IMG/VR virus record: IMGVR_UViG_3300011335_000701
Coordinates: 1-31,003 of that record
Direction: 5' to 3' (one strand)
Source of the DNA: a virus
Lineage: Duplodnaviria > Caudoviricetes
DNA: 31,003 bases
Shown here: in pieces, positions 1-31,003 of the stretch
How positions within the stretch are numbered: position 1 is the first letter of the stretch
Layout: each line of letters starts with the position of its first letter
Position numbers and translations under genes: made by a program
Notes under the pieces: generated by a model
What the model was told of the DNA's origin: nothing
Databases searched by the model: none
What the model saw: only the letters and a program-made list of their open reading frames with translations

Positions 1-276
1 AAAGCGTTGCGGATAATGCACGGCGCGCGCTTGAGGTGCGAGCGGAAAAACCTGAGTCACTGCGCGGAATGACAGCCGTAGGAATCGCGCGAGCGCGTGA
101 CCTAATGAACCGCCAGCAGCTTTCAGAGGACACTATCCGCCGAATACTTACCTTTTTTGAACGCCACGAAGTAGACAAACAAGGCGCGACTTGGGAAGAG
201 CAGGGCAAGGGCTGGCAGGCTTGGCACGGTTGGGGCGGCGACGAAGGCTTTTCGTGGGCGCGTCGGAAAGTTGACG
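1..276. repeat. Terminal direct repeat / circular overlap, copy 1
   Basis: Matches 30728-31003 except a68/c30795, a146/g30873 and a150/t30877. Confidence 0.95.
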
Positions 277-1316
277 AGTTTAACCGAGAGCAGAAAAAAA
301 GCCTAAGTGCTTGCGGTTGCAGCTCAATCGCTACGAAGACTTTTGCGTCTACCCTTTGGACAAAGGCCGCAACCCCTGACGCGGCGGATGAGTTTGACGA
401 AATCAACGAGCAAGAAGCGGAAATCGGCGCAGCGGTAGCGCGCATCCTCGACAAACAAGTACGGGAAGTGCTTAAGCGCGTTATGGCTGCTGGTACGCCT
501 ACTGCTGAGCTGCTAACCGAGGTGGAGCTACTGCTTCGCTCGCGCAAGTGGAACACTCAAGCGGTGGCAGCATTGCGCCCGTACCTAGAGCAGTCTCTTA
601 TGGCTGGTCTCTCTCTTGGTAACGACACGGTAGCCAAGTTGGCGCAAATCCCTGAGAACTTTAACCCGCGCAACGAAGACCTAGCCGCCTACGCGCGGAC
701 AGAATCGGTACGGCTGGCCAACAACGCAGCGCAGTCGATGAACGAATACACCGTAGTCGCTGTCAGCAAGATACTTGGCGACAGCCTAGCCTCGGATATG
801 TCTATAGACCAAATTGCGGAGCGAGTGCAGGAGTGGGCAATTGGAGACGGGGACGAAGTGCGAGCCACAAAGACCCGCGCGCTGATGATTGCACGGACAG
901 AGGCGCAGCGCGGAGCGCGAGCGGCAGAAGTTCACGCTTGGAAGTCTACAGGGCTGGTCGAAGGGAAGACTTGGCTACTGGCTCCTGACTCTTGCGAGTT
1001 TTGCGAGCAGGTAGCGTCATCCTTTGGTATTGACGCTATCGGCATTGACGGAAACTTCTACGCCAAGGGCGACACGCTAACTACCAAAAGCGGCCGCTCT
1101 ATGGTGCTGGACTATGAGGACATTACCGCGCCTCCACTGCACCCTAATTGCCGTTGCTCGCTTCAACCAAAGCTAAGCAGCGACTACGACGAAATCATAG
1201 CTGAGGCAGAAGCAGAGCAGGAAGCAGCTAACAGGCAGACACGCACGGAAATCATGGAAACACCAGACTACGAAGCAAATCAAGAGCGACGGCGGCAGAT
1301 TCTGGAAGGCAAATAA
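3..1316 (+). CDS. C-terminal part of portal fusion: unknown helical domain plus MuF/SPP1 gp7-like head morphogenesis domain
   Basis: In frame with the portal ORF across the circular junction. Contains RALMIARTE, KTW...CEFC and PPLHPNCRC motifs typical of MuF/gp7. Confidence 0.85.
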   Translation, partial: SVADNARRALEVRAEKPESLRGMTAVGIARARDLMNRQQLSEDTIRRILTFFERHEVDKQGATWEEQGKGWQAWHGWGGDEGFSWARRKVDEFNREQKKSLSACGCSSIATKTFASTLWTKAATPDAADEFDEINEQEAEIGAAVARILDKQVREVLKRVMAAGTPTAELLTEVELLLRSRKWNTQAVAALRPYLEQSLMAGLSLGNDTVAKLAQIPENFNPRNEDLAAYARTESVRLANNAAQSMNEYTVVAVSKILGDSLASDMSIDQIAERVQEWAIGDGDEVRATKTRALMIARTEAQRGARAAEVHAWKSTGLVEGKTWLLAPDSCEFCEQVASSFGIDAIGIDGNFYAKGDTLTTKSGRSMVLDYEDITAPPLHPNCRCSLQPKLSSDYDEIIAEAEAEQEAANRQTRTEIMETPDYEANQERRRQILEGK

Positions 1317-1978
1317 TGCAAACAATCACCCGTAAGACGCTATCCGCTAACTTTGTAAACACCGCTAAAGGCTTTGCGGCAGTCATCACCGCCGAAAGCC
1401 TAGATCGCGACGGCGAGGTTCTCATACCCTCAGGCATGAACAGCACAGAGTACGACCGCCAGCCGACCCTTTTTTGGAATCACGACTACGCCAAGCCTGT
1501 TGGGCGCGCTGTCTCAATCAAGCGCAGGGATACCGATATACTTGGCGAGTTTGTTTTTGCGGAAAGGCCTGAGGGCTACTCAGGCGAGTTTTTTCCCGAA
1601 GTAGCCGCCGCGTTGGTAGGTCAAGGCATCGTTACCGCTGTCTCAATTGGCTACACCCCTGAGGCGGGCGGAGTGCGGAAAGCCTCAGCAGTAGACAAAA
1701 AACGCTACGGCGAGGAAGTGGTAACAGTGTTTAGCCGCTGGAAGTTGCTAGAGGTATCGCTGGCTCCGTTGCAGTCAAACCCTGACGCGCTCATTACTGC
1801 CATCCGTAAGGGAATGATTTCACCCGTAGCCGCCAAGCAGTTTTTCAATGTGGAAGTGCCTCGGCGCGTTGTAGTTTCCGTCCCTGTGCCATCAATCAAG
1901 CAGACGGATAAGCCGATGCAACTTGCGGCCGCCGTTGCTCGCGAAATTGCGAAGGCGCGCGGCCAGCTCTACCTCTAA
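1316..1978 (+). CDS. HK97-family prohead protease
   Basis: DRDGEV, LFWNHD, VSIGY and LLEVSLAPLQSNPDA motifs; lies between portal and capsid. Confidence 0.9.
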   Translation: MQTITRKTLSANFVNTAKGFAAVITAESLDRDGEVLIPSGMNSTEYDRQPTLFWNHDYAKPVGRAVSIKRRDTDILGEFVFAERPEGYSGEFFPEVAAALVGQGIVTAVSIGYTPEAGGVRKASAVDKKRYGEEVVTVFSRWKLLEVSLAPLQSNPDALITAIRKGMISPVAAKQFFNVEVPRRVVVSVPVPSIKQTDKPMQLAAAVAREIAKARGQLYL

Positions 1979-2060
1979 GCGGGTGCGATTGTGTCTACGG
2001 CGTTTTGCCTGCAAGCCGATCTAGACCCTAACGGTAGAGAAATCACAAGGCAAAACAAAA

Positions 2061-3416
2061 ATGGACAGCATGACACTCGACAAGTTTACGGAATGCCTGA
2101 CGCGCGCGGCTAAGGCCGCAGGCGCAAACGGCGCAATCCTGCAAAAGAAGCTCATCCTTGATAAATACCTCATCGTTGACGATGCTGGAATCGCGGTCGA
2201 TCCCGATAGCATTGATGTAATGCTCATGCCAGCTGCACCAGCAGACGAGGCGGCAATCGCTACCGAAAGCGCATCGGTGCAGAAACAAATCAAGCGCGAA
2301 GTGGCGGCTAGCCTTGCTACGGTTCCTCGAATCACTGGCGGAACGCTCGGTACTGAGGCTTGGGAGTCTGCCAAGGTGTACGGCCGAATCAAGGCGTTTT
2401 CGGGCAATCACGAAAAGGCTTACAAGTTCGGCGCATGGTGCTTGGCGGCAATGGGACATAAAAAGAGCGCAGACTTCTGCGCGCGCAACGGCATTGTGCT
2501 GACTAAGGGACATACCGAAGGCGTAAACAGCGCGGGCGGTTTCCTTGTGCCAGACCAGTTTGAAAATGAACTGATTGTTCTGCGCGAGCAGTACGGCGTA
2601 TTCCGTCGCAACGCCAAAATCTACCCGATGACTGGCGACACGCTCCGCATCCCTCGTAAGAACGCAGGGTTGACCGCCTACTTCTCTGGCGAAGCAGCAG
2701 CAGGTACAGAATCAACGATGACCTTTGACTCGGTGCAGTTGGTGGCAAAGAAGCTCATTGCGCTTACCACTGTCTCTAACGAATTGCTAGAAGACTCGGT
2801 CATCAATATTGCGGACGATGTTGCTACCGAAATGGCGTACCAGTTCGCCTACAAAGAGGATGACGCTGGCTTCAACGGCGACGGCACTAGCACCTACGGC
2901 GGTATCGTCGGCCTTGGCTCTGCGCTGACTGACTCTACCTACCAAGTGTCAGCGAGTGCAGGCAGCACAAAGGCAGCGGTTACGGCTGCTGAAATTGGCG
3001 CAGCACTGGCCTACCTCCCAAATTGGGCAGCAGCGCGCAGTAATGTAAAAATCTACTGCAACAAGGGCGCGTACCACTCGATTTTTGAACGCCTTACGCT
3101 GGCTGCTGGTGGCGTGACTGCTAACGAAGTCGCTAACGGCGTTGCGCCTCGCTACTTTGGCTACCCGATTGAGTTTAGCCAAGCTATCGCTACCCCTGCT
3201 GACGGCGGCTCTGCGACCGTCTGCTACATCGGTGACCTCGCGCAAGCTTGCTACCTCGGTGATCGTCGCTCGTCAACCATTGCGTTTAGCGACTCAGCCT
3301 TGAACGCCTTTGAGCAGGATGAGCGCGTTGTACGCGGTACTCAGCGTTTCGACATTATCTGTGCAAATGTCGGCAGTTCAAGCGCGTACGGTGCAATGGT
3401 CAAGTTTACGCTCTAA
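2061..3416 (+). CDS. HK97-fold major capsid protein with N-terminal scaffold/delta region
   Basis: AGGFLVPDQF, VSNELLEDS, FNGDG and RFD motifs; follows the protease. Confidence 0.92.
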   Translation: MDSMTLDKFTECLTRAAKAAGANGAILQKKLILDKYLIVDDAGIAVDPDSIDVMLMPAAPADEAAIATESASVQKQIKREVAASLATVPRITGGTLGTEAWESAKVYGRIKAFSGNHEKAYKFGAWCLAAMGHKKSADFCARNGIVLTKGHTEGVNSAGGFLVPDQFENELIVLREQYGVFRRNAKIYPMTGDTLRIPRKNAGLTAYFSGEAAAGTESTMTFDSVQLVAKKLIALTTVSNELLEDSVINIADDVATEMAYQFAYKEDDAGFNGDGTSTYGGIVGLGSALTDSTYQVSASAGSTKAAVTAAEIGAALAYLPNWAAARSNVKIYCNKGAYHSIFERLTLAAGGVTANEVANGVAPRYFGYPIEFSQAIATPADGGSATVCYIGDLAQACYLGDRRSSTIAFSDSALNAFEQDERVVRGTQRFDIICANVGSSSAYGAMVKFTL

Positions 3417-3435
3417 TAAGAGAGAGGATTTCACA

Positions 3436-3882
3436 ATGAAGCAAAACACAAAAACAGTTTTGATGAATACCGCTAACTCGTTTGCGGCTTTGACCTCGGC
3501 CTCAATCACCTCTATGACTGGCACAGTAGATACTTTTGGGTTCCGCTATGCCAGCATTTCGGGCTTTGCCGATAGCACCTCAGGGCTTCACACTACCGCA
3601 GCAAACAACTTGCTTGCGGAAAGTGATGACAACAGCACCTTTTCTACAATTACGGCAGCAGTAGCAGGCGCAGCGTTTACGCCTACTTCCGCAGCTCTTT
3701 CAACCTCGTTGGCGAAGGTTACTTACAATGTTGACCTTCGCGGCCGTAAGCGTTACCTAAAGTGTACTCTTGCTCTTGGCACTGCCAGTCCTGCCGCTCA
3801 GCTTGTCTGCATTCTGTCGCAACCCGTTGACGGAGTTGTGACAGCAGCAGAGCAGGGCGCAGGGTTTATTTCAGTCACTTGA
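3436..3882 (+). CDS. Putative capsid decoration/minor head protein, paralog A
   Basis: ATG 3436 after AGAGGA; Ser/Thr/Ala-rich; ESDDNSTFS and LRGRKRYLK motifs; directly after the capsid gene. Confidence 0.65.
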   Translation: MKQNTKTVLMNTANSFAALTSASITSMTGTVDTFGFRYASISGFADSTSGLHTTAANNLLAESDDNSTFSTITAAVAGAAFTPTSAALSTSLAKVTYNVDLRGRKRYLKCTLALGTASPAAQLVCILSQPVDGVVTAAEQGAGFISVT

Positions 3883-3890
3883 TTTAATTA

Positions 3891-3920
3891 GGGGCGGGCA
3901 GGCTAGCCCCTGTCCGCCCC
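3891..3920 (+). terminator. GC-rich hairpin (weak terminator or attenuator)
   Basis: GGGGCGGGCAGG...CCTGTCCGCCCC stem followed only by TTGCTT. Confidence 0.55.
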
Positions 3921-3939
3921 TTGCTTGAAAGGCCAAACT

Positions 3940-4359
3940 ATGCGAAGCCAAATGAATATAAAGCTTGTGCCGCTTGATACTGGAACTGGTGCAGTGTCTA
4001 CGATTTCCAACAGCGTAGATACCAAGGGTTTCAACTTTGCCAAGTTCTGTTTTTTCTCTGACAGCACGGGGACGCTGACCACAGCGACGGCCATTACGGA
4101 GAGTGACGACAACAGCACCTTTTCCGCAATTGCTGGTTTTGTGAACGGCACAGACTACACCGTAAGCAGCTCAACCAACCTTACAACCGTTGCCAAGCTT
4201 GTCCTCGGGATGAACTTGCGCGGCCGTAAGCGTTATCTCAAGGCAACTGTTACTCATGCTACGGCTGGCCGTACTCGGTTTTGGTGCGAACTGTCCGACC
4301 CTTCGGACGGCGTTACATCAGCGACCGACACAAACACGGCTAACCTGATTTCACTTTAG
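3940..4359 (+). CDS. Putative capsid decoration/minor head protein, paralog B
   Basis: Shares VDTxGF, ESDDNSTFS, LRGRKRYLK and PxDGV with 3436-3882. Confidence 0.65.
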   Translation: MRSQMNIKLVPLDTGTGAVSTISNSVDTKGFNFAKFCFFSDSTGTLTTATAITESDDNSTFSAIAGFVNGTDYTVSSSTNLTTVAKLVLGMNLRGRKRYLKATVTHATAGRTRFWCELSDPSDGVTSATDTNTANLISL

Positions 4360-4382
4360 CGCAACCTCTTCCCCCTTTGCCT

Positions 4383-4422
4383 GAGGCGCGCGGTATCCGT
4401 ACTGTGCGCCTCGGTCTTTTTT
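4383..4422 (+). terminator. Rho-independent terminator
   Basis: GAGGCGCGCGGTA-TCCG-TACTGTGCGCCTC stem followed by GGTCTTTTTT. Confidence 0.7.
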
Positions 4423-4438
4423 GTGGCACAATGCGGCA

Positions 4439-5491
4439 ATGACTACGCGCAACGCTATCGACATCGGTGACCAGCTAGCACAGATTGCAACAGATGACGC
4501 TTGTACTGCTCTTAAACAGGTAGCGGACTCGCTGGCTGACGGCGGCATACTTACGCTAAATGTGCCAAACATCGAGCATTTTACGCGGAAGTACGGCGAA
4601 GGCGCGCCAGATTGTGAAAACTACCTGCTTGGCGGCGGCAAGTATAAAAGCGTTTGGAACCGCGAGAAGCTCAGCGTAACGCTTAACGCGGCAGGGTTTG
4701 AAGTGCTAGGCGGTGCAGACGGCCGTACTAGCTGGATTGATGACGCGGGGCGGTTTGCCATCCGCGCGCGCAAGTGCAGCAGACCAGCACCACCTCGGCC
4801 GTTGTCTGAGGTTCACGCAATCATGTCTATGCCGCGCGTAGCGTGGACTGACACTATGGGAGAACTAAGCGAAGCCGCTGCAACGCTTGGGATAAACACC
4901 TCACGGGCGCAGGGCGTTTTTTGGGGTCAGTGCCTAGAGCGGCTTATGGAACAGGCGCAACTGAACGACGCTATCAAATATGTTTTGACGGTTGACTACG
5001 ACTCGATTTTTAACGCCTCGGATATTGTGCGCCTCTGGCAAGTCATGGAAACTAACCCCGATATCGACGCGCTCTGTCCGTTGCAGATTGGGCGAGAGCG
5101 CGACTGTGTCATTTTTAGCCTTGCCGACAAGGCGGGGCAGCTGCTAAAAGAAACGCCGTTAGACACTTTTCATCGGGACGCGGTTGATATGTTTACGGGT
5201 CACTTTGGCCTAACCCTTATCCGTACCTCTGCGCTCAGGAAAATGAAATCCCCTCTTTTCCTCGGCGTTCCAAACGCTGACGGAAGGTGGGGAGAAGGGC
5301 GCACCGATGACGATATACACTTCTGGAACAACCTCCGCGAGTCTGGCGGCAGAATTTGCGTCTGCCCTAAGGTGCGAATCGGTCACTTGCAGGCCATGAT
5401 TACATGGCCTGACGAAATGATGAAAGCCAAGCACCAGTACCTAACGCAGTATCACGCAGACGGGAGGCCTGACGAGTGCATGACCTTCTAA
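4439..5491 (+). CDS. GT-A fold (GT2-like) glycosyltransferase with degenerate N-terminal methyltransferase-like segment
   Basis: VLTVDYDSIF (DxD), DDDIHFW and VRIGHL motifs. N-terminal LADGGILTLNVPN...LNAAGF resembles the C-half of class I methyltransferases. Confidence 0.75.
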   Translation: MTTRNAIDIGDQLAQIATDDACTALKQVADSLADGGILTLNVPNIEHFTRKYGEGAPDCENYLLGGGKYKSVWNREKLSVTLNAAGFEVLGGADGRTSWIDDAGRFAIRARKCSRPAPPRPLSEVHAIMSMPRVAWTDTMGELSEAAATLGINTSRAQGVFWGQCLERLMEQAQLNDAIKYVLTVDYDSIFNASDIVRLWQVMETNPDIDALCPLQIGRERDCVIFSLADKAGQLLKETPLDTFHRDAVDMFTGHFGLTLIRTSALRKMKSPLFLGVPNADGRWGEGRTDDDIHFWNNLRESGGRICVCPKVRIGHLQAMITWPDEMMKAKHQYLTQYHADGRPDECMTF

Positions 5492-5739
5492 TCATTATCC
5501 GCAACATTGCCGTGCATGACAGCGAGCGGGGGCGGCTGTCCCTCCGCGCTGGCGCGCTGGTAAACATTGAGGCCGCTACCGCCGCTCGGCTAGTTGCTGG
5601 CGGCTACGCGCGCTATGCGATACCGCCTGCTCCGTTGTTTGTGGATTCGACGCAAGCCGTAGAAGAGACGAAGAAGGTAGCAGTACCGAAGGAACTAAAA
5701 AATGGCCGTATCAGCAAGCGCACTATGCACCCTAGTTAA
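5476..5739 (+). CDS. Small hypothetical head-associated protein
   Basis: AARLVAGGYA motif, common in small genes before head-tail adaptors. Confidence 0.5.
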   Translation: MHDLLIIIRNIAVHDSERGRLSLRAGALVNIEAATAARLVAGGYARYAIPPAPLFVDSTQAVEETKKVAVPKELKNGRISKRTMHPS

Positions 5740-6517
5740 CCTTAAGCTGAGCCTCGGCATTACCTCGGCGACTACTGATACGCTTTTAGAGCAGGCGATT
5801 GACCGAGCCAGCGCAACCGTGCAACGCTACTGCGCGCGAAACTTTGTAAGCCAACGCTACTACGAATGGCATGACACGCAAGGCCATAGGCGGCTTGCGC
5901 TCAAGCATAACCCGATTGCAAAAATCCGATTTATCGGTATTGGAGCCGAGGCAGCTCTTACGGTTAGCTCGACAACTGCCAGCGACATTGCCGCGACCGT
6001 AAGCGTTGAGGATACAGCGGTGCAGTTGTACCGCGTTGCGTCTACTGGCACAGGCGCGGCTACTGAGCTGCTGTTTTCTACCTACGATTCTACGGTAGAG
6101 CTTGCCGCGCAAATCAACGCTACTAGCGGATTCTCCGCCAGCACTGTTGTAGGTTTTCCGAGCCAGTACCTACGCCGCCGAGCAGCGGTAAACCTGCTGC
6201 AAGGCACAGGGACGCTGTACGCGCCAAGCGAAAGCATAGACGAATACACCTTTGACCCTGATACTGGCATAATCTACGGCGGGCTACTGAGTCAGCCTCA
6301 GTCGATTATTGTTGACTACCTAGGCGGCTACACAACTGTTCCCTATGATGTTGAGTACGCGGCAATCAGGCTAGCTAGCAGGCTGTTCAACTCGCGCCAG
6401 CGCGACGAAGGGCTATCAAGCGAAAGCCTCGGCGGGTACTCGTACTCTCTCCGTGCATCGGCAGAGATTGACGCAGATATGCGCCTGATGCTTGACCCGT
6501 TCAAGAGGCTCCGTTGA
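5702..6517 (+). CDS. Head-tail adaptor (HK97 gp6/SPP1 gp15-like) with internal insertion
   Basis: LKLSLGI...DTLLEQAIDRAS, VDYLGGY..VPYDV and SESLGGYSYS. Confidence 0.8.
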   Translation: MAVSASALCTLVNLKLSLGITSATTDTLLEQAIDRASATVQRYCARNFVSQRYYEWHDTQGHRRLALKHNPIAKIRFIGIGAEAALTVSSTTASDIAATVSVEDTAVQLYRVASTGTGAATELLFSTYDSTVELAAQINATSGFSASTVVGFPSQYLRRRAAVNLLQGTGTLYAPSESIDEYTFDPDTGIIYGGLLSQPQSIIVDYLGGYTTVPYDVEYAAIRLASRLFNSRQRDEGLSSESLGGYSYSLRASAEIDADMRLMLDPFKRLR

Positions 6518-6900
6518 GCGTTCAAACACTCATAAACACCTTCGGTATCGACTTTGAGGTACGAACCCCAATCTACGCTACTGCTGCTGACGGCACGGTG
6601 ACGCGCACTTACAGTAAATCCTACTCGGCGCGCGGCTTCCTATCGCCAAGCTCGCAAACCGAATCGCTAGCGCAAGGGCGCGAAAACAGCCGACGCAGCG
6701 GAACGATTTACCTGAGCGGCATTTACTCGGTAACCACAGACGATGAAATCCGCGAGGACTCTGTAAAGCTGTCGTACCCTATCTGGCGCGTTGTTGGCTC
6801 AGTCAATCCGCTAGAGTTGCAGCGCACTGGAGTTTCAAAACTGCTTAACTTTACGGCCGTTAGCGTTGTAGAGGTTGACCCCGCAGAGGTAGCGGAATGA
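6514..6900 (+). CDS. Putative head closure (stopper) protein
   Basis: Position and size after the adaptor; beta-rich. Confidence 0.55.
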   Translation: MSVQTLINTFGIDFEVRTPIYATAADGTVTRTYSKSYSARGFLSPSSQTESLAQGRENSRRSGTIYLSGIYSVTTDDEIREDSVKLSYPIWRVVGSVNPLELQRTGVSKLLNFTAVSVVEVDPAEVAE

Positions 6901-7394
6901 CCGACACTCGGCCTATCGTAAAAATTGACGCGCTGGATATACAACTGATTCTGCATAAGGCAGTAGCCGAGGCGTTAACAGGTTCGACGGTGATTGCGGG
7001 AAAGTTGCTGCGTACGCAGTTGTCACAGCAGGGACGCGGCAAGATTCGGCGCGTTAGTCTTGGCTACTCAGGGGAACAAACCCTACGGTCTAAGGGCTAC
7101 CACCAGTCATCAGTAGCTGGACAATCGCCCGCACCAAATACAAACCGCCTCCGTGCGTCGTGGGCAATCGGTACAAACGAGTACAAGGCAGAGGACGGTA
7201 TTTTTCGGATAAAGGCTTTTGCTGGTACTACTCTTGTTGAGCTTGGCAGCAAGGTTTTTTACGCTAGATCGCTCGAGTACGGCGCAGGGAAAATGAAGCC
7301 GCGCCCCTACCTGTCCGTAGTGCTACCGATCATTGCAAGGCAGCTACCCGCTATTTTTGCGGTATCAATCCGTAAGGCGTTTAAAAACAGATGA
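6897..7394 (+). CDS. HK97 gp10-like neck/tail completion protein
   Basis: YARSLEYGAGKMKPRPYL and SPAPNTNRLRAS. Confidence 0.8.
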   Translation: MTDTRPIVKIDALDIQLILHKAVAEALTGSTVIAGKLLRTQLSQQGRGKIRRVSLGYSGEQTLRSKGYHQSSVAGQSPAPNTNRLRASWAIGTNEYKAEDGIFRIKAFAGTTLVELGSKVFYARSLEYGAGKMKPRPYLSVVLPIIARQLPAIFAVSIRKAFKNR

Positions 7395-7786: not shown

Positions 7787-7795
7787 GGAAACACA

Positions 7796-8254: not shown

Positions 8255-8517
8255 ACTCAAACCTCGACAGCGTCGTTCGCCCTGCTGCTGACGATTGGGT
8301 AGTGAGCCTGACCACAAAAGAGGGCGTTACCACTAACCGACGAATCAACGCTGGCTACCTATCTGAGGAGGTAGCGTTACGCCTTGCGTTGCATATTGGG
8401 CTGCTACGCTCGCAAGATGTAGACTACTGGAGCATACGCAGAGCCTCGGACAGTTCGCTAGTATTGCCAGATACTGACGACCCCCTGATTCACCTGCTCA
8501 ACAAAAGGCGACAATGA
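8242..8517 (+). CDS. Hypothetical tail-region protein
   Basis: ORF overlapping both neighbours. Confidence 0.5.
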   Translation: MANLNSNLDSVVRPAADDWVVSLTTKEGVTTNRRINAGYLSEEVALRLALHIGLLRSQDVDYWSIRRASDSSLVLPDTDDPLIHLLNKRRQ

Positions 8518-10994: not shown

Positions 10995-11356
10995 TGGCTG
11001 ACGAAATTACGCTAAACCTCAAGCTGGCCGTTGATAAGTCTTTTCTGGTGCAAAAGTTTGACTCCTCTACGCAATTAGTAACCATGACGGGGTCAACCGC
11101 TACGGGCGGCGTGCAAACCATTGGCACTACTGCCGAAGTGCTGGTTATGAGTGATGTAACCACCAGCGGCTACGCATACTTCCGCAATACCGACGCGGCC
11201 ATAGCGATAGAGCTAGGAACTGGTACTACTGCCTTCGCTACTTTCCTAAAGCTCAAGGCAGGCGAGGTAGCCGTATGCAGGCTATCTACTAACGCTCCTA
11301 CAGCTCGGGCAGCGTCTACTACGGCAAACCTGCAATACTTTATCCTCCAAGACTAA
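10994..11356 (+). CDS. Putative virion protein (beta-sandwich)
   Basis: Thr-rich; YFRNTD...LKAGE; coupled to upstream gene. Confidence 0.5.
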   Translation: MADEITLNLKLAVDKSFLVQKFDSSTQLVTMTGSTATGGVQTIGTTAEVLVMSDVTTSGYAYFRNTDAAIAIELGTGTTAFATFLKLKAGEVAVCRLSTNAPTARAASTTANLQYFILQD

Positions 11357-16868: not shown

Positions 16869-16904
<36 letters not shown>

Positions 16905-16934: not shown

Positions 16935-17516
16935 ATGAAACCAGCTGCCCGTATGGATTCGGCCGCGCTTGCCGCGTTTCTTACCCGTGTACATCATTTT
17001 TTTAGGGGACACAATCCGCTAGACGCGGAGCTTCTGCGTCTGGCTCTGCCGCAGATTACCGCGTCTGACCCCGTTGCGGCAAATCAAGCCTTAGACCGCT
17101 ACGCGGTAGCGCACGGCGGCGAGCGCGCTCGGTTCATCCCTAGCTACTTTTTTGCTGCGCTCGATTTAGTGCTAGCCGCGCCAGAGGTTACGCCGTCAGC
17201 ATCGGCGCAGGCCGCGCGCAATCAGGCCGCCCGCACAGTAGAGGCCGTGGCAATTGACGCAGACTGGTCAGCAGTTAGAACGGAGCTGGCGCGCGCGCCT
17301 GCTCATCAACTACAGGAGGCTGTAGCAACGCTTGTACGGCTAGGCTGGCGCGAGCCGCCCCAAGATGTAGCCGAATGGTCTAGAGCTTGGCTGGTGACCT
17401 GTGCAGGCCTTATTCGTGGCGACTTGCCGACACAGATAGACGCTAACGGCAAGCTGGTTGAATCCGATAATGCCGCCGCTTTCTACGCCAGAGTGGGCAG
17501 AATGCTTGCCCGCTGA
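16935..17516 (+). CDS. Hypothetical protein (possibly replication-associated)
   Basis: GAGGAG RBS; follows the origin-like region; function inferred from position only. Confidence 0.55.
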   Translation: MKPAARMDSAALAAFLTRVHHFFRGHNPLDAELLRLALPQITASDPVAANQALDRYAVAHGGERARFIPSYFFAALDLVLAAPEVTPSASAQAARNQAARTVEAVAIDADWSAVRTELARAPAHQLQEAVATLVRLGWREPPQDVAEWSRAWLVTCAGLIRGDLPTQIDANGKLVESDNAAAFYARVGRMLAR

Positions 17517-17520
17517 GATA

Positions 17521-17611
17521 TTCGCGCGAAATCGTAAGATTCGCGCGAATGTGCCTTGACTTTATGCCGATGCAAGCTATCATCGGTGTAACCAAGCGCG
17601 GCAAGAGCCGC
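17521..17611 (+). promoter_or_regulatory. Early promoter unit 1: two TTCGCGCGAA palindromes, TTGACT-N16-TATCAT, AAGA hairpin
   Basis: Palindromes 17521-30 and 17539-50; -35 at 17556-61; -10 at 17578-83; hairpin 17598-611. Confidence 0.75.
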
Positions 17612-17627
17612 AGAAAAGGACAGTGAA

Positions 17628-18414: not shown

Positions 18415-18776
18415 TGAACCCGTACACCTGCAAAGTTGCCTACCGTTTCAACCTTGAATCAGTGCTAGAGCGTACCGCTAACCTCCCGTGGCCAGCGGAT
18501 GAAATCACTGGCCAATGGCTGGTAGTTGATCATCAAAACTACCACACTTTTCGCGCAAACCTTTACGAATGGCTGTTTCGCTTTAACTGGTGCGGAACAA
18601 CTGCCTATCAGGAAATGCTGGAAATTGTTGCAGCTGATCAGCACCAGTATCGGCGCAGTTTGTGCGATTGGGAGCCGCGCGCTAACAGTACTTACCCGTA
18701 CAACCAGCGCGACCGAGTTGAGGCGCGCAACCTTGAACGGCTTGAGCGCATGAACCGCGCTATAGCTGCCAAGTAA
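18414..18776 (+). CDS. Hypothetical protein
   Basis: GGAGG RBS, TAATG coupling. Confidence 0.65.
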   Translation: MNPYTCKVAYRFNLESVLERTANLPWPADEITGQWLVVDHQNYHTFRANLYEWLFRFNWCGTTAYQEMLEIVAADQHQYRRSLCDWEPRANSTYPYNQRDRVEARNLERLERMNRAIAAK

Positions 18777-18865
18777 TTCGCGCGAAATTAGTAGATTCGC
18801 TGTAATGCTGCTTGACTTTGAGCCGATAGAGGCTATGCTGGTGTAACCCAAGCGGCAAGAGCCGC
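18777..18865 (+). promoter_or_regulatory. Early promoter unit 2 (homolog of unit 1)
   Basis: TTCGCGCGAA 18777-86; TTGACT 18812-17; TATGCT 18834-39; hairpin 18852-65. Confidence 0.75.
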
Positions 18866-18879
18866 AGAATCGAGACTAT

Positions 18880-19086: not shown

Positions 19087-19129
19087 GGCCTACCTACCAG
19101 CGGCAAGAGCCGCAGAATCGAGACAAGAA

Positions 19130-19540: not shown

Positions 19541-20061
19541 GCCGTAGCCTGTTTCATATCTCGGAGGACATGGGCGCGCTAGACGCGCTTCTATCCGAGG
19601 CCAACGGGGATGTATCTGCGCCAGAGACTCAGGCCGCGCTAGAGACTTGGGAGGCCGAGCTGGAGACTGACCTGCTCGGCAAAGTCGATGCGTACTGTGG
19701 ACTGATTACCGAAATGGAAGCGCGCATCTGGACGCGCACCGTGGAAGCTCGGCGGCTAAAGGAGTTGGCCGAGTCTGACCAACGAGCAGTAGACGCGCTG
19801 CGCGACCGATTGCGCGCTGTCTGGCTGGCTCGCAATCTCGGCAAGCTTCAATGCCCGCGCTTTGTGGTTTCCGTTGTAAAGAACGGCGGCAAGCTGCCGC
19901 TACTGGTAACTGACTCGGCCGACAACCTGCCACGGTGGGCGGTCAAAACCGTAAACACTGTATCGGTGGACAACGACGCAATCCGCGCGCGGATTGACGC
20001 TGGCGAGGTGCTGAGCTTCGCGCAGCTCGGCGAGCGCGGCGTAAGGCTGTCGATCAAATGA
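19537..20061 (+). CDS. Siphovirus Gp157-family protein
   Basis: SLFHIS, KVDAYCGLI, EARRLKEL, KNGGKLPL and ERGVRLSIK patterns. Confidence 0.8.
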   Translation: MSRSLFHISEDMGALDALLSEANGDVSAPETQAALETWEAELETDLLGKVDAYCGLITEMEARIWTRTVEARRLKELAESDQRAVDALRDRLRAVWLARNLGKLQCPRFVVSVVKNGGKLPLLVTDSADNLPRWAVKTVNTVSVDNDAIRARIDAGEVLSFAQLGERGVRLSIK

Positions 20062-23215: not shown

Positions 23216-23218
23216 ATC

Positions 23219-23386
23219 ATGCTCGAAAAAATCGTTGCAAAAATCGCGCTTGCTCTTGTCTCATGGCTGGAGTCTCGCATTGAGCGCGGCAGCACTGCCA
23301 AGGACGCGACCCCTGACCGCGACTCTCTGCGCCGTGGCGGTACTCGCTTGCGCCTGTGGCTGCTCAAGAACCGTGCTAGTAAGTGA
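23219..23386 (+). CDS. 55-aa protein, candidate i-spanin (not in ORF track)
   Basis: GGAGG RBS; MLEKIVAKIALALVSWLE...; overlaps a lipoprotein gene in another frame. Confidence 0.45.
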   Translation: MLEKIVAKIALALVSWLESRIERGSTAKDATPDRDSLRRGGTRLRLWLLKNRASK

Positions 23387-23546
23387 GTCAAGCCCTATCC
23401 GCATCGGAGAGGTACGCGGCACTGTTTACGCAATGGTTGACGGCGAGTGGAGGCTATCCGCTAACACGGTAACCGTACCCGAAGGCTGGTACTGTGTTCC
23501 GCCGTCATTTATGGATGCCCTTGACGCGAGCGCGCCTAACAGGTGA
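23280..23546 (+). CDS. Lipoprotein, candidate o-spanin
   Basis: GGAG + TTG 23280; signal peptide ending VAVLACACGC-S. Confidence 0.55.
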   Translation: MSAAALPRTRPLTATLCAVAVLACACGCSRTVLVSESSPIRIGEVRGTVYAMVDGEWRLSANTVTVPEGWYCVPPSFMDALDASAPNR

Positions 23547-23788
23547 CCCTAGCGCGCTCCAAAATCCCTAAAGTTGCGCCAGCTACCGAGACTGAAACAA
23601 AGTGGCTAACTACGGGCGACTGCGCTAAACGCCTTGGCGTAACTACGCGGCTGGTTGCGCGGTGGATTGACTCGGGGCGGCTGCTCGGCTTTACGCTGCC
23701 AGAATCGCGCGACCGCAGGGTACACCCTGACGCGCTAGCAGAGTTTCAACGGCGCGAAGGCTTTGACGCTGCCCGAGGTATAAAATGA
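23543..23788 (+). CDS. Excisionase-like / MerR-type HTH protein
   Basis: WLTTGDCAKRLGVTTRLVARWIDSGRLLGF..SRDRRV. Confidence 0.8.
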   Translation: MTLARSKIPKVAPATETETKWLTTGDCAKRLGVTTRLVARWIDSGRLLGFTLPESRDRRVHPDALAEFQRREGFDAARGIK

Positions 23789-24803: not shown

Positions 24804-25171
24804 CCTACGCGCGGCTTGACGCATCTTCAATCGTCGTTGAACTGATCGAATCAGACCAGCCTGTAGCAGACTGCGTACGAGTGCTTGACGGCATGAACGC
24901 GCGTCTAGGAGCCTTTTACACGGGGTGGGAGTTTGTAGCCCCGCGCTGGACTGCGTATCAGTTTCTTGGGCGGTTTACTGCGGCTGAGCTGTCCGCAGTC
25001 ATTGAAACCGCAAAGACCGACGCGCAGCTAGCCTACTTTCTCACAATGGCGCAGGCCGCGCAGGAAATCGTATCTGATGACGCTGCAACAGTCAGCGGAA
25101 TGGGTTACCTTGTCGCCAACGGACTGCTGACCGCCATGAGGCGGAACGAAATCCTATCTACTGGAGACTAG
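24800..25171 (+). CDS. Hypothetical protein (fibre-chaperone-like)
   Basis: FLGRFTAAE...GLLTAMRRNEIL, a pattern seen after tail fibre genes. Confidence 0.5.
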   Translation: MTYARLDASSIVVELIESDQPVADCVRVLDGMNARLGAFYTGWEFVAPRWTAYQFLGRFTAAELSAVIETAKTDAQLAYFLTMAQAAQEIVSDDAATVSGMGYLVANGLLTAMRRNEILSTGD

Positions 25172-25173
25172 CC

Positions 25174-25833
25174 ATGATCGACACAAGCGCGCCCGTAGCA
25201 TTTAGATCGCAAGCAGGCCAAGACCTTTTTGCGCTGGCTGCCCTACGCGGCAAACGCCACGGCCTTTTCGTGGACATTGGCGCAGGCCATCCCGAGCATA
25301 TCTCTAACACGGTAATGCTTGAGCGGGACTACGGGTGGTCTGGCATCCTGTGCGACATTGCAACCGAAGCAGAACTACGCGCGGTGCGCTCACCAGACAA
25401 CACAGTCTACGGGGATGCCTTTGAGGTAAACTGGCTTAAGGCAATAAGCGGGCTACCACTGCAAGCGCAGCGCGTAGACTACCTCAGCCTAGACCTAGAG
25501 CCGCCGCTGTTGACGCTGTGCGCTTTGTGCTTAGTGCCGCTTGACGCTGTACGATTTAGCGTCATTACCATAGAGCATGACAGCTACCGTGGCGCAGAAT
25601 GTGCAGTGATGGCTGAGGCAATGCGGGCGATACTGCTAAACAGAGGCTACCTGTTAGTCGCAAGGGATGTACAGGTACTAGCACCAAACGGAAAGCTTAG
25701 AGCCTTTGAGGATTGGTGGCTTGACGGTGACTTCTTTACCGCTGCTGAAATTGCTACGGCAACACAGGCAGCAGACCAAATACGGGCGGTGTTTCTAGCC
25801 GAGTGGACTAAGGCTACAGCCGCTGCTAGCTAG
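25174..25833 (+). CDS. FkbM-family (Methyltransf_21-like) SAM methyltransferase
   Basis: SQAGQD, FVDIGA, SNT..LE..GWSG, VDYLSLDLE, ITIEH and EDWW. Confidence 0.82.
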   Translation: MIDTSAPVAFRSQAGQDLFALAALRGKRHGLFVDIGAGHPEHISNTVMLERDYGWSGILCDIATEAELRAVRSPDNTVYGDAFEVNWLKAISGLPLQAQRVDYLSLDLEPPLLTLCALCLVPLDAVRFSVITIEHDSYRGAECAVMAEAMRAILLNRGYLLVARDVQVLAPNGKLRAFEDWWLDGDFFTAAEIATATQAADQIRAVFLAEWTKATAAAS

Positions 25834-25882
25834 TTTCCTAATCTAAGCCCCGAGTCCGCAGGGGGTCAGGGGGAGCGCGCCT

Positions 25883-26197
25883 ATGGCTTTACCAAAACTG
25901 TTGAACGATGCCCGACCGCCGCGCCAGACGATGCAAATGCTGTCTATGGCTATTGCTAACGGCTGGCAGATACCTGACTCAGTAATGAGAGCCGCACCCG
26001 CAGTAGTTGCTAACCTGCTAGTCAACGGCACTGACCGCGAAAAACTCCGAGCTGCCGAGGTGCTTATTCGTATGCGTGAATCAAATATCAACGGGCTAGA
26101 GGTGGCTGATAGATTGGAACGCCTTGATAGTGGCGAGGCCACGGAGCGCGTTGAGTTTGCGCCTATTGTATTGAGGAGCCGCGCTGCCAATGACTGA
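25883..26197 (+). CDS. terS: Putative terminase small subunit
   Basis: Helical 104 aa with ERLDSGEATERVE C-terminus; upstream of TerL. Confidence 0.5.
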   Translation: MALPKLLNDARPPRQTMQMLSMAIANGWQIPDSVMRAAPAVVANLLVNGTDREKLRAAEVLIRMRESNINGLEVADRLERLDSGEATERVEFAPIVLRSRAAND

Positions 26198-26783
26198 CCC
26201 CGCAATCCTCTGCGCGTACAGCAAGCTGGTAGCACCTGCTAAGCTCAAGCCTCACCCGCGCAACCCAAACAAACACAGTGAAAACCAAGTATCGGTAATC
26301 GCAAAGGCTATCGTAGAATCAGGCTGGCGGCATCCTGTCATAGTCAGCAAGCGGAGCGGGCTGATAGTTGCAGGTCACGGCCGAGTTATGGCGGCAATCT
26401 ACGCAGGAATCAAAAGCGTACCCGTAGAAATCCAAGACTTTGAAACCGACGCGGCGGAGCTGGCGTTCCTTGTGGCCGACAATCGCCTATCGGCTCTCTC
26501 TGATCTAGACGATGTTGCCATATCGGAAATCCTAGAGACACTGACCCAACTAGGCGCGAGCGTTTCATCCGCAGGCTACGACCAGTCTGCGCTTATCGAA
26601 ATGGTTAACGAAATTGAAGCGAAGGAACGCCGCGCAGTCGAGCGCGAGCAGGCCGCGCAGCAACGCCAAGAGCCAGCAGCAACAGCAACCGCAGGCAACG
26701 GCGAGCCGACGCAACGCCCTGAGTTTATCCCTGTTGGCAGCGTGACTACGCGCGCGCCGTGCAAGTACTGCGGGCGGCCTTGA
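26190..26783 (+). CDS. ParB/Srx N-terminal domain protein
   Basis: LKPHPRNPNKH, GWRHPVIV, IVAGHGRVMAA and LVADNRL; C-terminal CKYCG. Confidence 0.88.
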   Translation: MTDPAILCAYSKLVAPAKLKPHPRNPNKHSENQVSVIAKAIVESGWRHPVIVSKRSGLIVAGHGRVMAAIYAGIKSVPVEIQDFETDAAELAFLVADNRLSALSDLDDVAISEILETLTQLGASVSSAGYDQSALIEMVNEIEAKERRAVEREQAAQQRQEPAATATAGNGEPTQRPEFIPVGSVTTRAPCKYCGRP

Positions 26784-27514
26784 TGTCAGCAGTTAAAAAG
26801 ACGCGCGAAAGCCCGTACCAAATTGCTTGGCGGCTCAAGCGTATGGGGTATAGCAAGGTAAAGCTAGACTTTTCGGGCGGTAAGGAATCTTCAGCGTGCT
26901 GGCTTGCGCTACAGGCGGAAGGGGTGCAGGTTGTGCCAATGATGGCCGTACCCTACCCGCACCTAGAAGTAACTCGGCAAGTGAACGGCTACTTTGAAGA
27001 CTACTTTAGGTGCAAGGTGTACACCTACCCTATGTCCCGTTGGTATCGGTGCTGGAGGGACTTGCTCTACCTAGATCCGTACCTAGTGCGAGTCGCGGAA
27101 ACGCTTAAAATCAAGGAACGCCCAAGCGCAGACCGCATCGTGCGGATACACAGCGCGCTAGCAGGCTTGCCCGATGGACATATGACGGTAGCAGGCCTAC
27201 GCGCATCGGATAGCCGCCAGCGGTTTCTATCTATCTACAAGCACGGCGTAATTGCGGAGGGTAATCTACGGTGCTACCCTGTTGCATGGTGCAATGAGTC
27301 TGCTATCTACTCTATGCTGATTCATCACGGGCTAAAACTACCGTCGCTGTACAAAGACCTGCACCAGAGCTTTGATGTCCCACGGGCAAAAATCCTAGAC
27401 TGGCTTCAAATTAACCTGCCCGAAGACTACCAGCGCATCCTCGCATTCTCTCCGCTCATCCGTCTTGAGCAGGAACGCTACCGCATAGGAGGATCAAATT
27501 GCAGCATCCGCTAG
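26783..27514 (+). CDS. PAPS-reductase-like PP-loop protein
   Basis: FSGGKES PP-loop, GLRASDSRQR, YPVAW, LPSLY...SFD and EDYQRIL..PL. Confidence 0.75.
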   Translation: MSAVKKTRESPYQIAWRLKRMGYSKVKLDFSGGKESSACWLALQAEGVQVVPMMAVPYPHLEVTRQVNGYFEDYFRCKVYTYPMSRWYRCWRDLLYLDPYLVRVAETLKIKERPSADRIVRIHSALAGLPDGHMTVAGLRASDSRQRFLSIYKHGVIAEGNLRCYPVAWCNESAIYSMLIHHGLKLPSLYKDLHQSFDVPRAKILDWLQINLPEDYQRILAFSPLIRLEQERYRIGGSNCSIR

Positions 27515-27900
27515 ACGATATTGTGCCGCTACTGCCTGAGATTGCCGACAACGCTAACTTTGACCAGCGCGCGGCTAGCGCGGCTATGCTTGCGCTTGCC
27601 GCGCAAAGGGTTAGCATTTCAAGCGATGAAGGCTTTTACACCGTCATAGTGTTTCAGACCAAGCCACAGCTCCAAGAGTTTTTGCACCGCACAGGGTGGG
27701 AACTAGAGCATGACGGCTACTGGATTGACGGCTTTAAGCTTGCGGACAAATTAGGCATAGACATTAAACCGATAGACCCCGAAGTAATGCAGCGGGTCTA
27801 TGACCGAGTCAAGACCACAAAACAGGAAACCGACGCGATAGCGAGAGGCTTGGAGTTTTTCCCTATCGAGTCACTACAACGAAAGAAGAAGAAAAAATGA
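27499..27900 (+). CDS. Small cassette-associated protein
   Basis: AGGAGG + TTG; FYTVIVFQTKPQLQEFL...WIDG..LA..LGI. Confidence 0.65.
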   Translation: MQHPLDDIVPLLPEIADNANFDQRAASAAMLALAAQRVSISSDEGFYTVIVFQTKPQLQEFLHRTGWELEHDGYWIDGFKLADKLGIDIKPIDPEVMQRVYDRVKTTKQETDAIARGLEFFPIESLQRKKKKK

Positions 27901-27980
27901 ATACTTTCTCTACCCGTACTTTTGTCATGGAAAACCCTGACGCACCGCCAGCAACCAGCACAGGCGGCCGAGGCGGCTAA
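27897..27980 (+). CDS. 27-aa peptide MNTFSTRTFVMENPDAPPATSTGGRGG (not in ORF track)
   Basis: ATGA overlap with the upstream stop; TAA 27978-27980. Confidence 0.5.
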   Translation: MNTFSTRTFVMENPDAPPATSTGGRGG

Positions 27981-28011
27981 CTCTATCTCAGCGACAACGA
28001 CGCGCGCGCGG

Positions 28012-29193
28012 TTGGAACTTCCGCCGATGTATCCTAAACAGTACGCGGCGGTCTGTGACCCCGCGCGCATCGTTGTTATTGAGGCCGCGACAAAGGCAGG
28101 CAAAACCGTAGGCTGCCTTATGTGGCTCCTGTCGCGAGCGTGGAACGGCGGCAAGGGAGAGTACTGGTGGATTGCTCCTACCTTCGCGCAATCTACAATG
28201 GCCTTTAACCGTATGGTTGATTGGCTACAGCAAGGCGACCCCGCTAAGCACGCTTGGGATGTAAACCTATCCGTAGTGCGGATACGACTTAGCAACGGGG
28301 CGAACATCTGGTTTAAGAGCGCAGACAACGCGGACAGCCTGTACGGCGAGGATGTGCAATCCGCAGTAATTGACGAGGCTACGCGGTGCAGTGAAGCCAG
28401 CTGGTACGCCATCCGCTCAACGCTAACCGCTACCCGTGGAAAGCTTCGCATCATTGGCAATGTGCGCGGGCGCAAAAATTGGGCGTTTGCGCTGGCGCGC
28501 CGTGCAGAAGCGGGCGAGCGCGACATGGCGTATTTTAAGTTGACCGCATACGACGCAGTCGAAGGCGGAGTAGTAGACGCGCAGGAAATCGAAGACGCAA
28601 AGCGGGTACTACCCGAGGCCATTTTTCGCGAGCTGTACCTAGCAGAGCCATCAGACGATGGCGGAAACCCGTTCGGAATCAAGGCTATAGCCGAATGTGT
28701 CGCTCCTCTCTCTCCTCTGCCCGTTGTCTGTTGGGGCGTGGATCTAGCTAAGAGCCGAGACTGGACAGTAGCAGTAGGCCTAGACACTGACGGCAAGGTA
28801 TGCCAGCTTGAGCGGTGGCAGGGTGCTTGGTCAGTTACTCGCGAGCGGCTCGCGCGCATGATTAAGGACACGCCAGCACAGATAGATTCTACTGGTGTCG
28901 GTGACCCTATCGTAGAAGACCTTCGCAAAGTTTGCGCTCGGGCTGAAGGCTTCCGATTCTCTAGTCAGTCAAAACAACAGTTGATGGAAGGCCTCCAAAT
29001 TGCCATATCTACCAAGGAAATACGGTTCCCTGACGGTTGGCTACGGGTTGAACTTGAGTCGTTTGGCTTCCGATACTCACAGAAGGCTATACAGTATGAG
29101 GCGACGGTAGGCCATGATGACGGGGTATGCGCGCTCGCGCTTGCCGTTCATGCTCGACGGCAAAGGCATCCCTTCATTATCCGAGTCTTCTAA
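28012..29193 (+). CDS. terL: Terminase large subunit
   Basis: AATKAGKT Walker A, WWIAPT, VIDEA Walker B, WGVDLA, IDSTGVG and HDDGVCALAL; start uncertain (TTG 28012 or ATG 28027). Confidence 0.92.
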   Translation: MELPPMYPKQYAAVCDPARIVVIEAATKAGKTVGCLMWLLSRAWNGGKGEYWWIAPTFAQSTMAFNRMVDWLQQGDPAKHAWDVNLSVVRIRLSNGANIWFKSADNADSLYGEDVQSAVIDEATRCSEASWYAIRSTLTATRGKLRIIGNVRGRKNWAFALARRAEAGERDMAYFKLTAYDAVEGGVVDAQEIEDAKRVLPEAIFRELYLAEPSDDGGNPFGIKAIAECVAPLSPLPVVCWGVDLAKSRDWTVAVGLDTDGKVCQLERWQGAWSVTRERLARMIKDTPAQIDSTGVGDPIVEDLRKVCARAEGFRFSSQSKQQLMEGLQIAISTKEIRFPDGWLRVELESFGFRYSQKAIQYEATVGHDDGVCALALAVHARRQRHPFIIRVF

Positions 29194-31003
29194 ATGTCGA
29201 TACTTGCACGAATTAAATCAGCCTTTTCTAGCCAGCCTTTCCTACAAGCCAGCGCGCGACTGCTACGCGGCAACGAGTCAATCCGCCCTACCTTTAGTCA
29301 TCACCAAGCGGTGAGCTATTACAGCAGCTGGATCTACGCAGCCGCTAACCTCAACGCCGTAGCAGTAGCCTCGCAACCCTTGCGCCTGTATGTCCGCAAC
29401 CGAAGCGCAGGCACTAAGCTTTGGGACACGCGCAAAGCTCCGCACCAAACCAAGGCCTACCTAAGCGGCTCGCTGGCTCACTGCCCGTCGCGCTACGCCA
29501 TGACTAAAGCCGCAGAGTACGGCGACGATTACGAGGTAGTAACTGAGGCGCACCCGTTACTTACTTTGCTCTCAAAAGTGAACCCCTATCAAAACGGATT
29601 TGACGCGACAGTGCTGCGCGTTCTGTACGGCGAGCTAACGGGAAACGCCTACATTCATCCTGTAATGGATCAGCGGCTACGGCGGCCTGTTGCGCTCTGG
29701 ACTATGCCGAGCCAGTATGTGGAAATTGTGCCAGACAAAGAGCAGTTTATTAGCGGCTACTTGTACGGCACTAGCCGCGACCAGCGGCACAAGTTCGCGG
29801 CCGATGAAGTCATCCACTTTAAGCGGCCTAACCCGTCTGACCTGTACTACGGCCTTGGCAAGGTAGAGGCGGCTTGGGGCGCGGCTACTTCTAACGCTGC
29901 CGTGCATGATATGGACTACCACTTTTTCGCAAATAAGGCGCGCCCTGATTACCTTATGACGGTTAAGAGCCATGCAACCCCTGAGGAGCTGGACAGGCTA
30001 GAGGCGCAGATTGACGAGAAGCTACGCGGCAGCAAGCGCACGGGTAGGTTCCTTACTAGCACTGCTGAAATCGACATAAAGCCTTTGTCTTTTCCGCCTA
30101 AAGACCTTGCAGGACGCGAGCAAATCGTAGAGGAAATCGCAGCAGTGTTTGGCGTACCTGTGTCTATGCTTAAGGCCAACGATCCAAACCTAGCCAGCGC
30201 AACGGTAGGGTTTACATCTTGGAAGGCAACGATGGTGCTACCTCTCCTGAGGATGGATGAGGAAACGCTAAATCAGGGTCTGCTGCCGTTGTTTGGTATT
30301 GAGGAAGACGCTTTTCTTTGCTATGACAACCCCGTAGCCGAAGACAAAGTTTTTGCGCTAGATAGGGTGCGCTCGCTAGTGATGAGTGGGCTGATGACCA
30401 CTAACGAAGGCCGCGAGCTGCAAGGGCTACCGCGCGTCAAAGATAGACAGGCCGACAGGCTGCTGGTAAACGGTCAGCCGCTAGGCGGCTTTCCCCCTGC
30501 CGCTCCTGCGGCAGCAGCTCCGCTAGTGCCTACCCCGTTACCCCTTGCCGACTCTCTAGCCTCCTCTCTGCGCTTGATTGATGCCGCTATGGACACAAAG
30601 GCCGCAACTAGTTGCGACTGCGTAGCAAAAAAAAACTACCCTGAGCCTGAGGAAGTAGTCTGGACTGATGAGACGAACGAGGAAAGCCCCTCGGTAATTA
30701 TGAAGGCGGTAAACACGCAACCGCCGCAAAGCGTTGCGGATAATGCACGGCGCGCGCTTGAGGTGCGAGCGGAAAAACCTGAGTCACTGCGCGGCATGAC
30801 AGCCGTAGGAATCGCGCGAGCGCGTGACCTAATGAACCGCCAGCAGCTTTCAGAGGACACTATCCGCCGAATGCTTTCCTTTTTTGAACGCCACGAAGTA
30901 GACAAACAAGGCGCGACTTGGGAAGAGCAGGGCAAGGGCTGGCAGGCTTGGCACGGTTGGGGCGGCGACGAAGGCTTTTCGTGGGCGCGTCGGAAAGTTG
31001 ACG
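29194..31003 (+). CDS. HK97-family portal protein, open to the window end and fused to 3-1316
   Basis: Translated by hand with no stop; HPLLTLL..NPYQ, LTGNAY, EVIHFK.PNP..YG, EIAAVFGVP and TTNEGR. Confidence 0.92.
   Translation, partial: MSILARIKSAFSSQPFLQASARLLRGNESIRPTFSHHQAVSYYSSWIYAAANLNAVAVASQPLRLYVRNRSAGTKLWDTRKAPHQTKAYLSGSLAHCPSRYAMTKAAEYGDDYEVVTEAHPLLTLLSKVNPYQNGFDATVLRVLYGELTGNAYIHPVMDQRLRRPVALWTMPSQYVEIVPDKEQFISGYLYGTSRDQRHKFAADEVIHFKRPNPSDLYYGLGKVEAAWGAATSNAAVHDMDYHFFANKARPDYLMTVKSHATPEELDRLEAQIDEKLRGSKRTGRFLTSTAEIDIKPLSFPPKDLAGREQIVEEIAAVFGVPVSMLKANDPNLASATVGFTSWKATMVLPLLRMDEETLNQGLLPLFGIEEDAFLCYDNPVAEDKVFALDRVRSLVMSGLMTTNEGRELQGLPRVKDRQADRLLVNGQPLGGFPPAAPAAAAPLVPTPLPLADSLASSLRLIDAAMDTKAATSCDCVAKKNYPEPEEVVWTDETNEESPSVIMKAVNTQPPQSVADNARRALEVRAEKPESLRGMTAVGIARARDLMNRQQLSEDTIRRMLSFFERHEVDKQGATWEEQGKGWQAWHGWGGDEGFSWARRKVD
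30728..31003. repeat. Terminal direct repeat / circular overlap, copy 2
   Basis: Matches 1-276 with 3 mismatches. Confidence 0.95.

Follow-up and report, generated by a model that had tools for sequence, protein, structure and literature searches.

Loss of CCNGG and GGNCC sites, and of the dipeptides they spell, from a tailed phage genome

The stretch of DNA analysed here, referred to throughout as the window, is the whole of the IMG/VR virus record IMGVR_UViG_3300011335_000701 (31,003 nucleotides), the genome of a tailed phage. It contains no copy of the palindromes CCNGG and GGNCC, and its proteins contain neither Pro-Gly nor Gly-Pro. All the sites have been removed, and ten pairs that are conserved among related phages have been replaced, likely through host restriction of any site-bearing genome. 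The relatives carry the same kind of purge in graded form and serve as controls.

Missing sites and missing dipeptides

By exact count CCNGG and GGNCC are both at zero, where an order-2 Markov model predicts 100 and 90 copies, and where 200 synonymous-codon shuffles of the 56 genes gave 89.7±8.5 (minimum 68) and 73.9±8.0 (minimum 48), respectively. In the 10,092 amino acids encoded by these genes, Pro-Gly and Gly-Pro are the most depleted dipeptides, with none of either against 24.7 expected of each, and both are at zero in all six frames. With the two palindromes gone from both strands, Pro-Gly and Gly-Pro become impossible to encode; no other dipeptide is blocked completely by the purged word set. 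These counts bear out the first-pass annotation, which had reported both the missing dipeptides and the purge of the two palindromes. Its expectation of a few dozen of each dipeptide agrees with composition but is too high for Gly-Pro, which is naturally under-used in this group (94 versus 161 expected at 11 loci on cellular contigs), so that a fair expectation is about 14. The absence of the pairs from shadow open reading frames, which had also been offered in support, follows from the absence of both palindromes and adds no independent evidence.

The purge acts on DNA, not on protein, and is independent of reading frame. Out-of-frame sites are also at zero (observed/expected: CCWGG 0/56, CCSGG 0/36, GGWCC 0/33, GGSCC 0/43), and Pro-Pro is used normally (20 versus 17.9 expected), as are P-x-G and G-x-P. 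Short palindromes far under expectation, with depletion independent of frame and strand, are the marks of restriction-site avoidance. All four GGNCC words are absent (GGWCC 0/43 and GGSCC 0/48 over all frames), while GGCC persists at 139/158. Because GGCC persists, GGNCC needs its own agent and looks like a Sau96I-type word, as had been proposed at first. The parallel attribution of CCNGG to a ScrFI-type enzyme proved not to be unique, because CCGG, at 0/144, covers both CCSGG words; one CCNGG enzyme, or a CCWGG agent together with a CCGG agent, may account for the loss equally well. In several relatives CCWGG is purged alone.

Overlooked in the earlier reading was that CCNGG and GGNCC are only two of the more than 20 motifs purged. 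A further 15 or so palindromes are at or near zero. There is no copy of CCGG, ACGT (0/84) or RGCGCY (0/98), nor of GDGCHC, GRCGYC, GGYRCC, RCATGY, TGCGCA, CTGCAG, CGATCG, CCGCGG or ACGCGT; GCGNCGC, CCCAG, TTGACA, CTGCGA and GCGATG are left with one or two copies each, and GGCC, GCNGC and GCGC are near expectation. Four of the depleted words, CCCAG, CTGCGA, GCGATG and TTGACA, are asymmetric and have the form of Type I, IIB or IIG sites. A scan of 1.57 million split patterns (threshold p < 1e-7) returned 18 raw hits when run on the real genes, while each of 8 shuffles returned none. After de-duplication the 18 make seven distinct purged asymmetric motifs: AAG(N5)CTB (3/45), CAC(N4)BTG (2/33), GAG(N6)GTK (1/26), CAA(N7)GTC (1/24), CCA(N6)STG, ACT(N3)ATK and TGA(N6)TYA; CAG(N5)CWT is purged additionally. 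All seven consist of three bases, N3–7 and three bases, with an A in the left half and a T in the right, as in Type I or IIB targets. The motifs are Type I/IIB-like in form, a likeness from which the class of enzyme cannot be read.

The effect of the purge extends beyond the forced pairs to dipeptides that have a silent escape. Asp, Asn, His or Tyr followed by Val is found 38 times versus 90 expected, because the C-ending codons of these residues before Val spell ACGT, and use of these pairs tracks ACGT depletion over the 24 rows of the graded series described below (rho 0.75). For the 364 other dipeptides, depletion does not follow from the proportion of codon pairs that are blocked (rho -0.04); the only depleted ones are the six pairs with more than 40% blocked (49 versus 109).

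Replaced positions and graded relatives

In IMG/VR, 309 relatives were confirmed by a capsid search, which returned the best 80 of them (51–72% identity); 17 longer relative records were added, and the loci were grouped by hand into 24 lineages from a quick capsid tree. Lineage Q was too short and was left out, so that the graded series has 24 rows, 23 lineages and the window.

Among columns present in 8 or more lineages and agreeing in at least 60% of them, none of the 10 conserved Pro-Gly or Gly-Pro pairs survives in the window (Table 1), as compared with 455 of 683 other conserved pairs that contain Pro or Gly and 1102 of the remaining 1804 (Fisher p 2e-5, overlapping pairs not being independent). 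Together with the empty out-of-frame sites, this supports the earlier claim that a purge at the DNA level forced amino-acid changes. The substitutions are mostly of Pro or Gly to Ala, Ser, Asp or Gln, and the clearest are those in the minor-head motif and in the portal. Of the individual substitutions first singled out, VAGQSP in the neck protein is confirmed. LPESRDRR in the HTH protein fares less well: cellular homologs do have IPGS, but phage homologs are a mixture of PG, PE, PF, PD and PA. LADGG is no substitution, since Pro-Gly occurs there in 0/23 of the lineages shown, most of which are LKDGG-like. Lineage A replaces nine of the same columns, at eight of them with a residue different from that of the window.

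Table 1. Coordinates of the replaced conserved pairs and of other features of the window
Feature	Positions	Strand	State in the window	Relatives or remarks
Whole genome, tailed phage	1..31003		Circular, 30,727 bp; genes nearly all on +	Virus record 98% complete
Terminal overlap	1..276 with 30728..31003		3 mismatches	Contigs carry the end version
Minor-head motif GPPLHPNCRC	1128..1133	+	Ala-Pro	Gly-Pro in 21/22 lineages; lineage A shares Ala
Conserved pair	5548..5553	+	Ala-Gly	Pro-Gly in 16/21 lineages
Conserved pair	6808..6813	+	Pro-Leu	Pro-Gly in 15/21 lineages
Neck protein	7029..7034	+	Gln-Gly	Pro-Gly in 15/21 lineages
Neck protein, VAGQSP	7116..7121	+	Ala-Gly	Pro-Gly in 16/21 lineages
Conserved pair	8350..8355	+	Ala-Gly	Pro-Gly in 16/20 lineages
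Conserved pair	11063..11068	+	Ser-Ser	Pro-Gly in 13/18 lineages
Conserved pair	17118..17123	+	Gly-Glu	Gly-Pro in 9/11 lineages
Gp157/Gam-like protein	19915..19920	+	Ser-Ala	Gly-Pro in 6/8 lineages
Portal	29731..29736	+	Pro-Asp	Pro-Gly in 14/16 lineages
HTH_17 protein	23543..23788	+	43% identity to N-terminus of a Phycisphaerae response regulator	Host clue
Cassette of three genes	26190..27900	+	Stand-alone ParB-like, PAPS-reductase-like and unknown genes	

The relatives show how the two dipeptides depend on the words that are purged. Lineages that purge only CCWGG spell Pro-Gly with CCSGG (21/21 in lineage H, 15/15 in lineage O), and those that purge GGWCC spell Gly-Pro with GGSCC (19/19 in L2, 17/17 in M2). 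In lineage J, 36 CCNGG sites remain, of which 35 are in frame as Pro-Gly and one is out of frame against about 148 expected, a pattern that implies that sites are lost last where their removal costs an amino acid. CCNGG is purged in lineages J, L and M, and GGNCC in A and R; in L, M and A, Pro-Gly has fallen to 11–17% of expectation. Gly-Pro is at zero in exactly 3 of the 24 rows (the window, A and R), namely those without out-of-frame GGWCC and GGSCC. In a tree built from five head and neck proteins these three stand apart from one another, and a forced grouping of the window with A is rejected (fast trees, 2000 replicates; approximately unbiased (AU) test, p 0.0005). Across rows, depletion of CC words is significantly correlated with Pro-Gly use (rho 0.59). 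At the 11 loci on Planctomycetota contigs there is no comparable purge, and Pro-Gly stands at 165 versus 161 expected.

The set of purged words differs from one related lineage to the next (for example G003, L101–L102; G004, L103–L104; G008; G010; G011), and the interrupted palindromes GAT(N4)ATC, GAC(N3)GTC, CCT(N5)AGG and GCC(N5)GGC are purged among them. These lineage-specific sets are likely a record of different host restriction repertoires. In another relative, G001, 8 of the 10 remaining CCGG, GGCC and ACGT words lie within 140 bases (L097, 12397–12533), perhaps in a repeat or a recently gained segment.

Candidate agents and host

We infer that restriction is the agent of the purge. A likely lytic phage without a methylase of its own would meet many restriction systems across host strains; silent changes would remove sites first, and sites that spell Pro-Gly or Gly-Pro, having no silent escape, would be lost last, by conservative substitution. 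Searches of all six frames of the window with PF00145, PF01555, PF02086 and PF05869, which cover C5, N6/N4, Dam and phage-Dam domains, found no DNA methylase domain. Methylase-labelled PHROG and PADLOC matches at 26190 were rejected, as they cover only the ParB-like N-terminus. The first-pass annotation was therefore right that there is no recognisable methylase, but this is not a condition for the purge. Among 28 related records a C5 methylase occurs in three and an N6/N4 methylase in seven, and G001 (C5) and G002 (N6/N4) are still without any GGNCC.

Another kind of site-specific DNA defence is an unlikely alternative. DISARM-like systems, which are associated with CCWGG, or modification-dependent nucleases whose targets are sites that the previous host had methylated, predict an identical frame-independent loss. 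CCWGG is indeed the word that several lineages purge by itself, and a GmrSD-family gene adjoins one Phycisphaerae methylase. Such defences cover few words, however, and the purge takes in more than 20 motifs, among them six-base palindromes and split motifs of Type I/IIB form.

Mutational erosion, in which C5 methylation by the host and subsequent deamination remove sites without selection, is largely refuted and retains very little probability. The purged palindromes are mostly rich in C and G, and CTWGG and TCGG are at 1.31 and 1.20 times expectation, as deamination would have it. However, the counts are at zero and not merely reduced, enrichment is strongest for neighbours that arise by transversion (GCWGG 1.53, ACGG/CCGT 1.34), the transition products of GGNCC are at only 0.97 and 0.84, and the mostly Pro or Gly to Ala replacements need transversions.

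Slightly less probable still is that an enzyme of the phage itself acts at these words, and that the phage avoids damage to its own DNA. The candidate would be the cassette at the end of Table 1, or an unrecognised nuclease. The cassette, possibly one for DNA modification, has its place where the ParB domain of many relatives is joined to an N6/N4 methylase, and it is similar to viral PAPS-reductase-like clusters. A search with the PAPS-reductase-like protein returned a single 97% self-like cluster. However, none of the relatives searched has a homolog of the PAPS-reductase-like gene, although GGNCC is purged in lineages A and R and CCNGG in J, L and M; more than 20 motifs are also beyond one enzyme. 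That Pro-Gly and Gly-Pro are avoided in translation (ribosome stalling, weak EF-P) or under a protein-level constraint, as their rank among depleted dipeptides might suggest, is refuted by the frame test, by the normal use of Pro-Pro, P-x-G and G-x-P, and by lineage J, which keeps CCNGG nearly only in frame, the opposite of what this explanation predicts.

The host is likely a freshwater member of the Phycisphaerae. Of 14 capsid matches in cellular assemblies, 11 belong to bins assigned to Planctomycetota, and two of these 11 sit on megabase contigs; the three closest, short contigs binned with other phyla, likely represent mis-binned phage. A conserved response regulator whose DNA-binding N-terminus resembles the HTH_17 protein is present in both of the Phycisphaerae genomes among five tested, and the phage protein is possibly a mimic of a host regulator. 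Host-genome searches returned capsid and terminase matches, similarity to RusA, a CT-repeat match and short chance matches; a 30-nt candidate spacer match was rejected, as it sits in ordinary sequence.

Phycisphaerae nuclease families lend plausibility, and only plausibility, to matching restriction. At 45 methylase loci of the class, chosen by score, the neighbouring nucleases include EcoRII-family (7), MvaI/BcnI (2), NgoMIV (2) and HaeII (1) members, and members of the TdeIII family are present in 2 of 186 genomes; the specificities of these families are presumed here. Genomes were also screened for low counts of two six-base words over 401 genomes, followed by up to 20 kb from each of 19 low-count genomes. 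Several small, low-G+C Phycisphaerae genomes (L145, L152, L155, L157, L161 and L162) strongly avoid GATC, with 1–7 copies versus 63–79 expected in 20 kb.

Several observations weigh against restriction as we picture it. On the host side, no spacer was found when the first half of the window was compared with 141 genomes of one Phycisphaerae order and the second half with 401 genomes of the class; a phage-like avoidance pattern occurs in 0 of the 19 sampled genomes, which mostly have low G+C or avoid GATC; and in the 186 class genomes the HpaII family is absent, as is the Eco47II family, for which the control was silent too. Among the relatives, depletion of GG words does not correlate significantly with Gly-Pro use across rows (rho 0.24, p 0.26), Gly-Pro is under-used everywhere in the group, and lineage R consists of a single 9-kb locus with 7 Gly-Pro expected. 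Lineage A is the best match for 17 of 46 window genes, with up to 83% identity; the two may have a host in common and trade genes, and would then not be independent environments. Some of the replacements may be ordinary drift, the branch of the window being long, and any fitness cost of the replacements is presumed.

We lean by a narrow margin towards reading this freshwater phage family as a natural selection series in which restriction rewrites proteins. Silent escape would come first, in-frame hold-outs would follow, and conserved Pro-Gly and Gly-Pro turns of structural proteins would finally be lost, repeatedly and in separate lineages; the most extreme member would also purge Type I-like split sites, and the genomes would record the restriction repertoire of uncultured hosts.

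The genome and its relation to known systems

A single read-through of the 276-nt end repeat by one contig, from a run that is possibly the source sample, implies that the genome is a circle of the size given in Table 1; joined across the ends, the portal and minor-head parts form one frame of 949 amino acids. River-metagenome contigs of another study match the window at 99% identity or more, which shows that the sequence is real. The genes include terminase, portal, protease, capsid, neck, RecT, Gp157, RusA and HTH genes. Among the Pfam and PHROG matches there is no integrase. No close cultured phage was found, the best capsid matches being below 32% identity; a search of 50,697 records with the portal DNA gave no match, and no holder of RNA data was found for the window.

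Other features stand apart from the purge. A CT dinucleotide repeat at 16870–16903, upstream of the gene at 16935, is a point where assemblies break, and Phycisphaerae genomes hold similar CT repeats. Intergenic repeat blocks at 17520–17622, 18776–18876 and 19099–19124 (79 nt at 71% identity and an identical 26-nt pair) contain a TTGACT element and are likely early promoters. Two paralogous genes follow the capsid gene (3310–3882 and 3925–4359), both phrog_5707 and with repeats in common; an SLT_beta Pfam match at 3310–3879 was taken as noise (E 0.0037, below the cut-off). The gene at 4421–5491 is a methyltransferase–glycosyltransferase-like fusion with weak Pfam matches, and that at 25174–25833 encodes a second methyltransferase-like protein, presumably FkbM-like, with no library match; both have homologs across the phage family.

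The purge matters because avoidance of sites is commonly regarded as silent and confined to the choice of codons, and here conserved portal, head and neck residues measurably change. The family offers matched controls in which the cost of substitution can be set against restriction-site risk, and lists of purged words, which predict the methylomes of hosts that are not known, offer a way to link uncultured phages to them.

Elimination of sites is established in non-temperate dsDNA phages (Rusinov et al. 2018, PMC6286503). Like those phages, the window eliminates Type II-like palindromes and lacks a detected integrase, and its prophage-like relatives avoid weakly. That survey did not find Type I and IIG sites to be avoided, unlike the window, in which split asymmetric motifs are purged as well. 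The survey also deals with DNA words only: 'amino acid', 'codon' and 'synonymous' do not occur in its main text. According to a review (PMC8410138), non-synonymous contributions to motif avoidance 'cannot be excluded'; going beyond that statement, we have measured the contribution column by column. Staphylococcal Rosenblumvirus phages such as phiAGO1.3, small podoviruses with a cultured host, all lack GGNCC, the Sau96I target, as well as many Type I (Sau1) sites, with no mention of a protein consequence in the corresponding passages (PMC6346686). Absence of GGNCC means that they, too, have no Gly-Pro. Unlike these phages, whose genomes are presumably low in G+C, the window has 55% G+C, has lost both Pro-Gly and Gly-Pro, and has relatives that give graded controls. 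Among open-access literature titles and abstract openings, we found no report of dipeptide loss from site avoidance. The window is an extreme, well-controlled variant of a known evasion strategy, and what gives it value is the gradient within the family, the recurrence of the replacements and the loss of split motifs.

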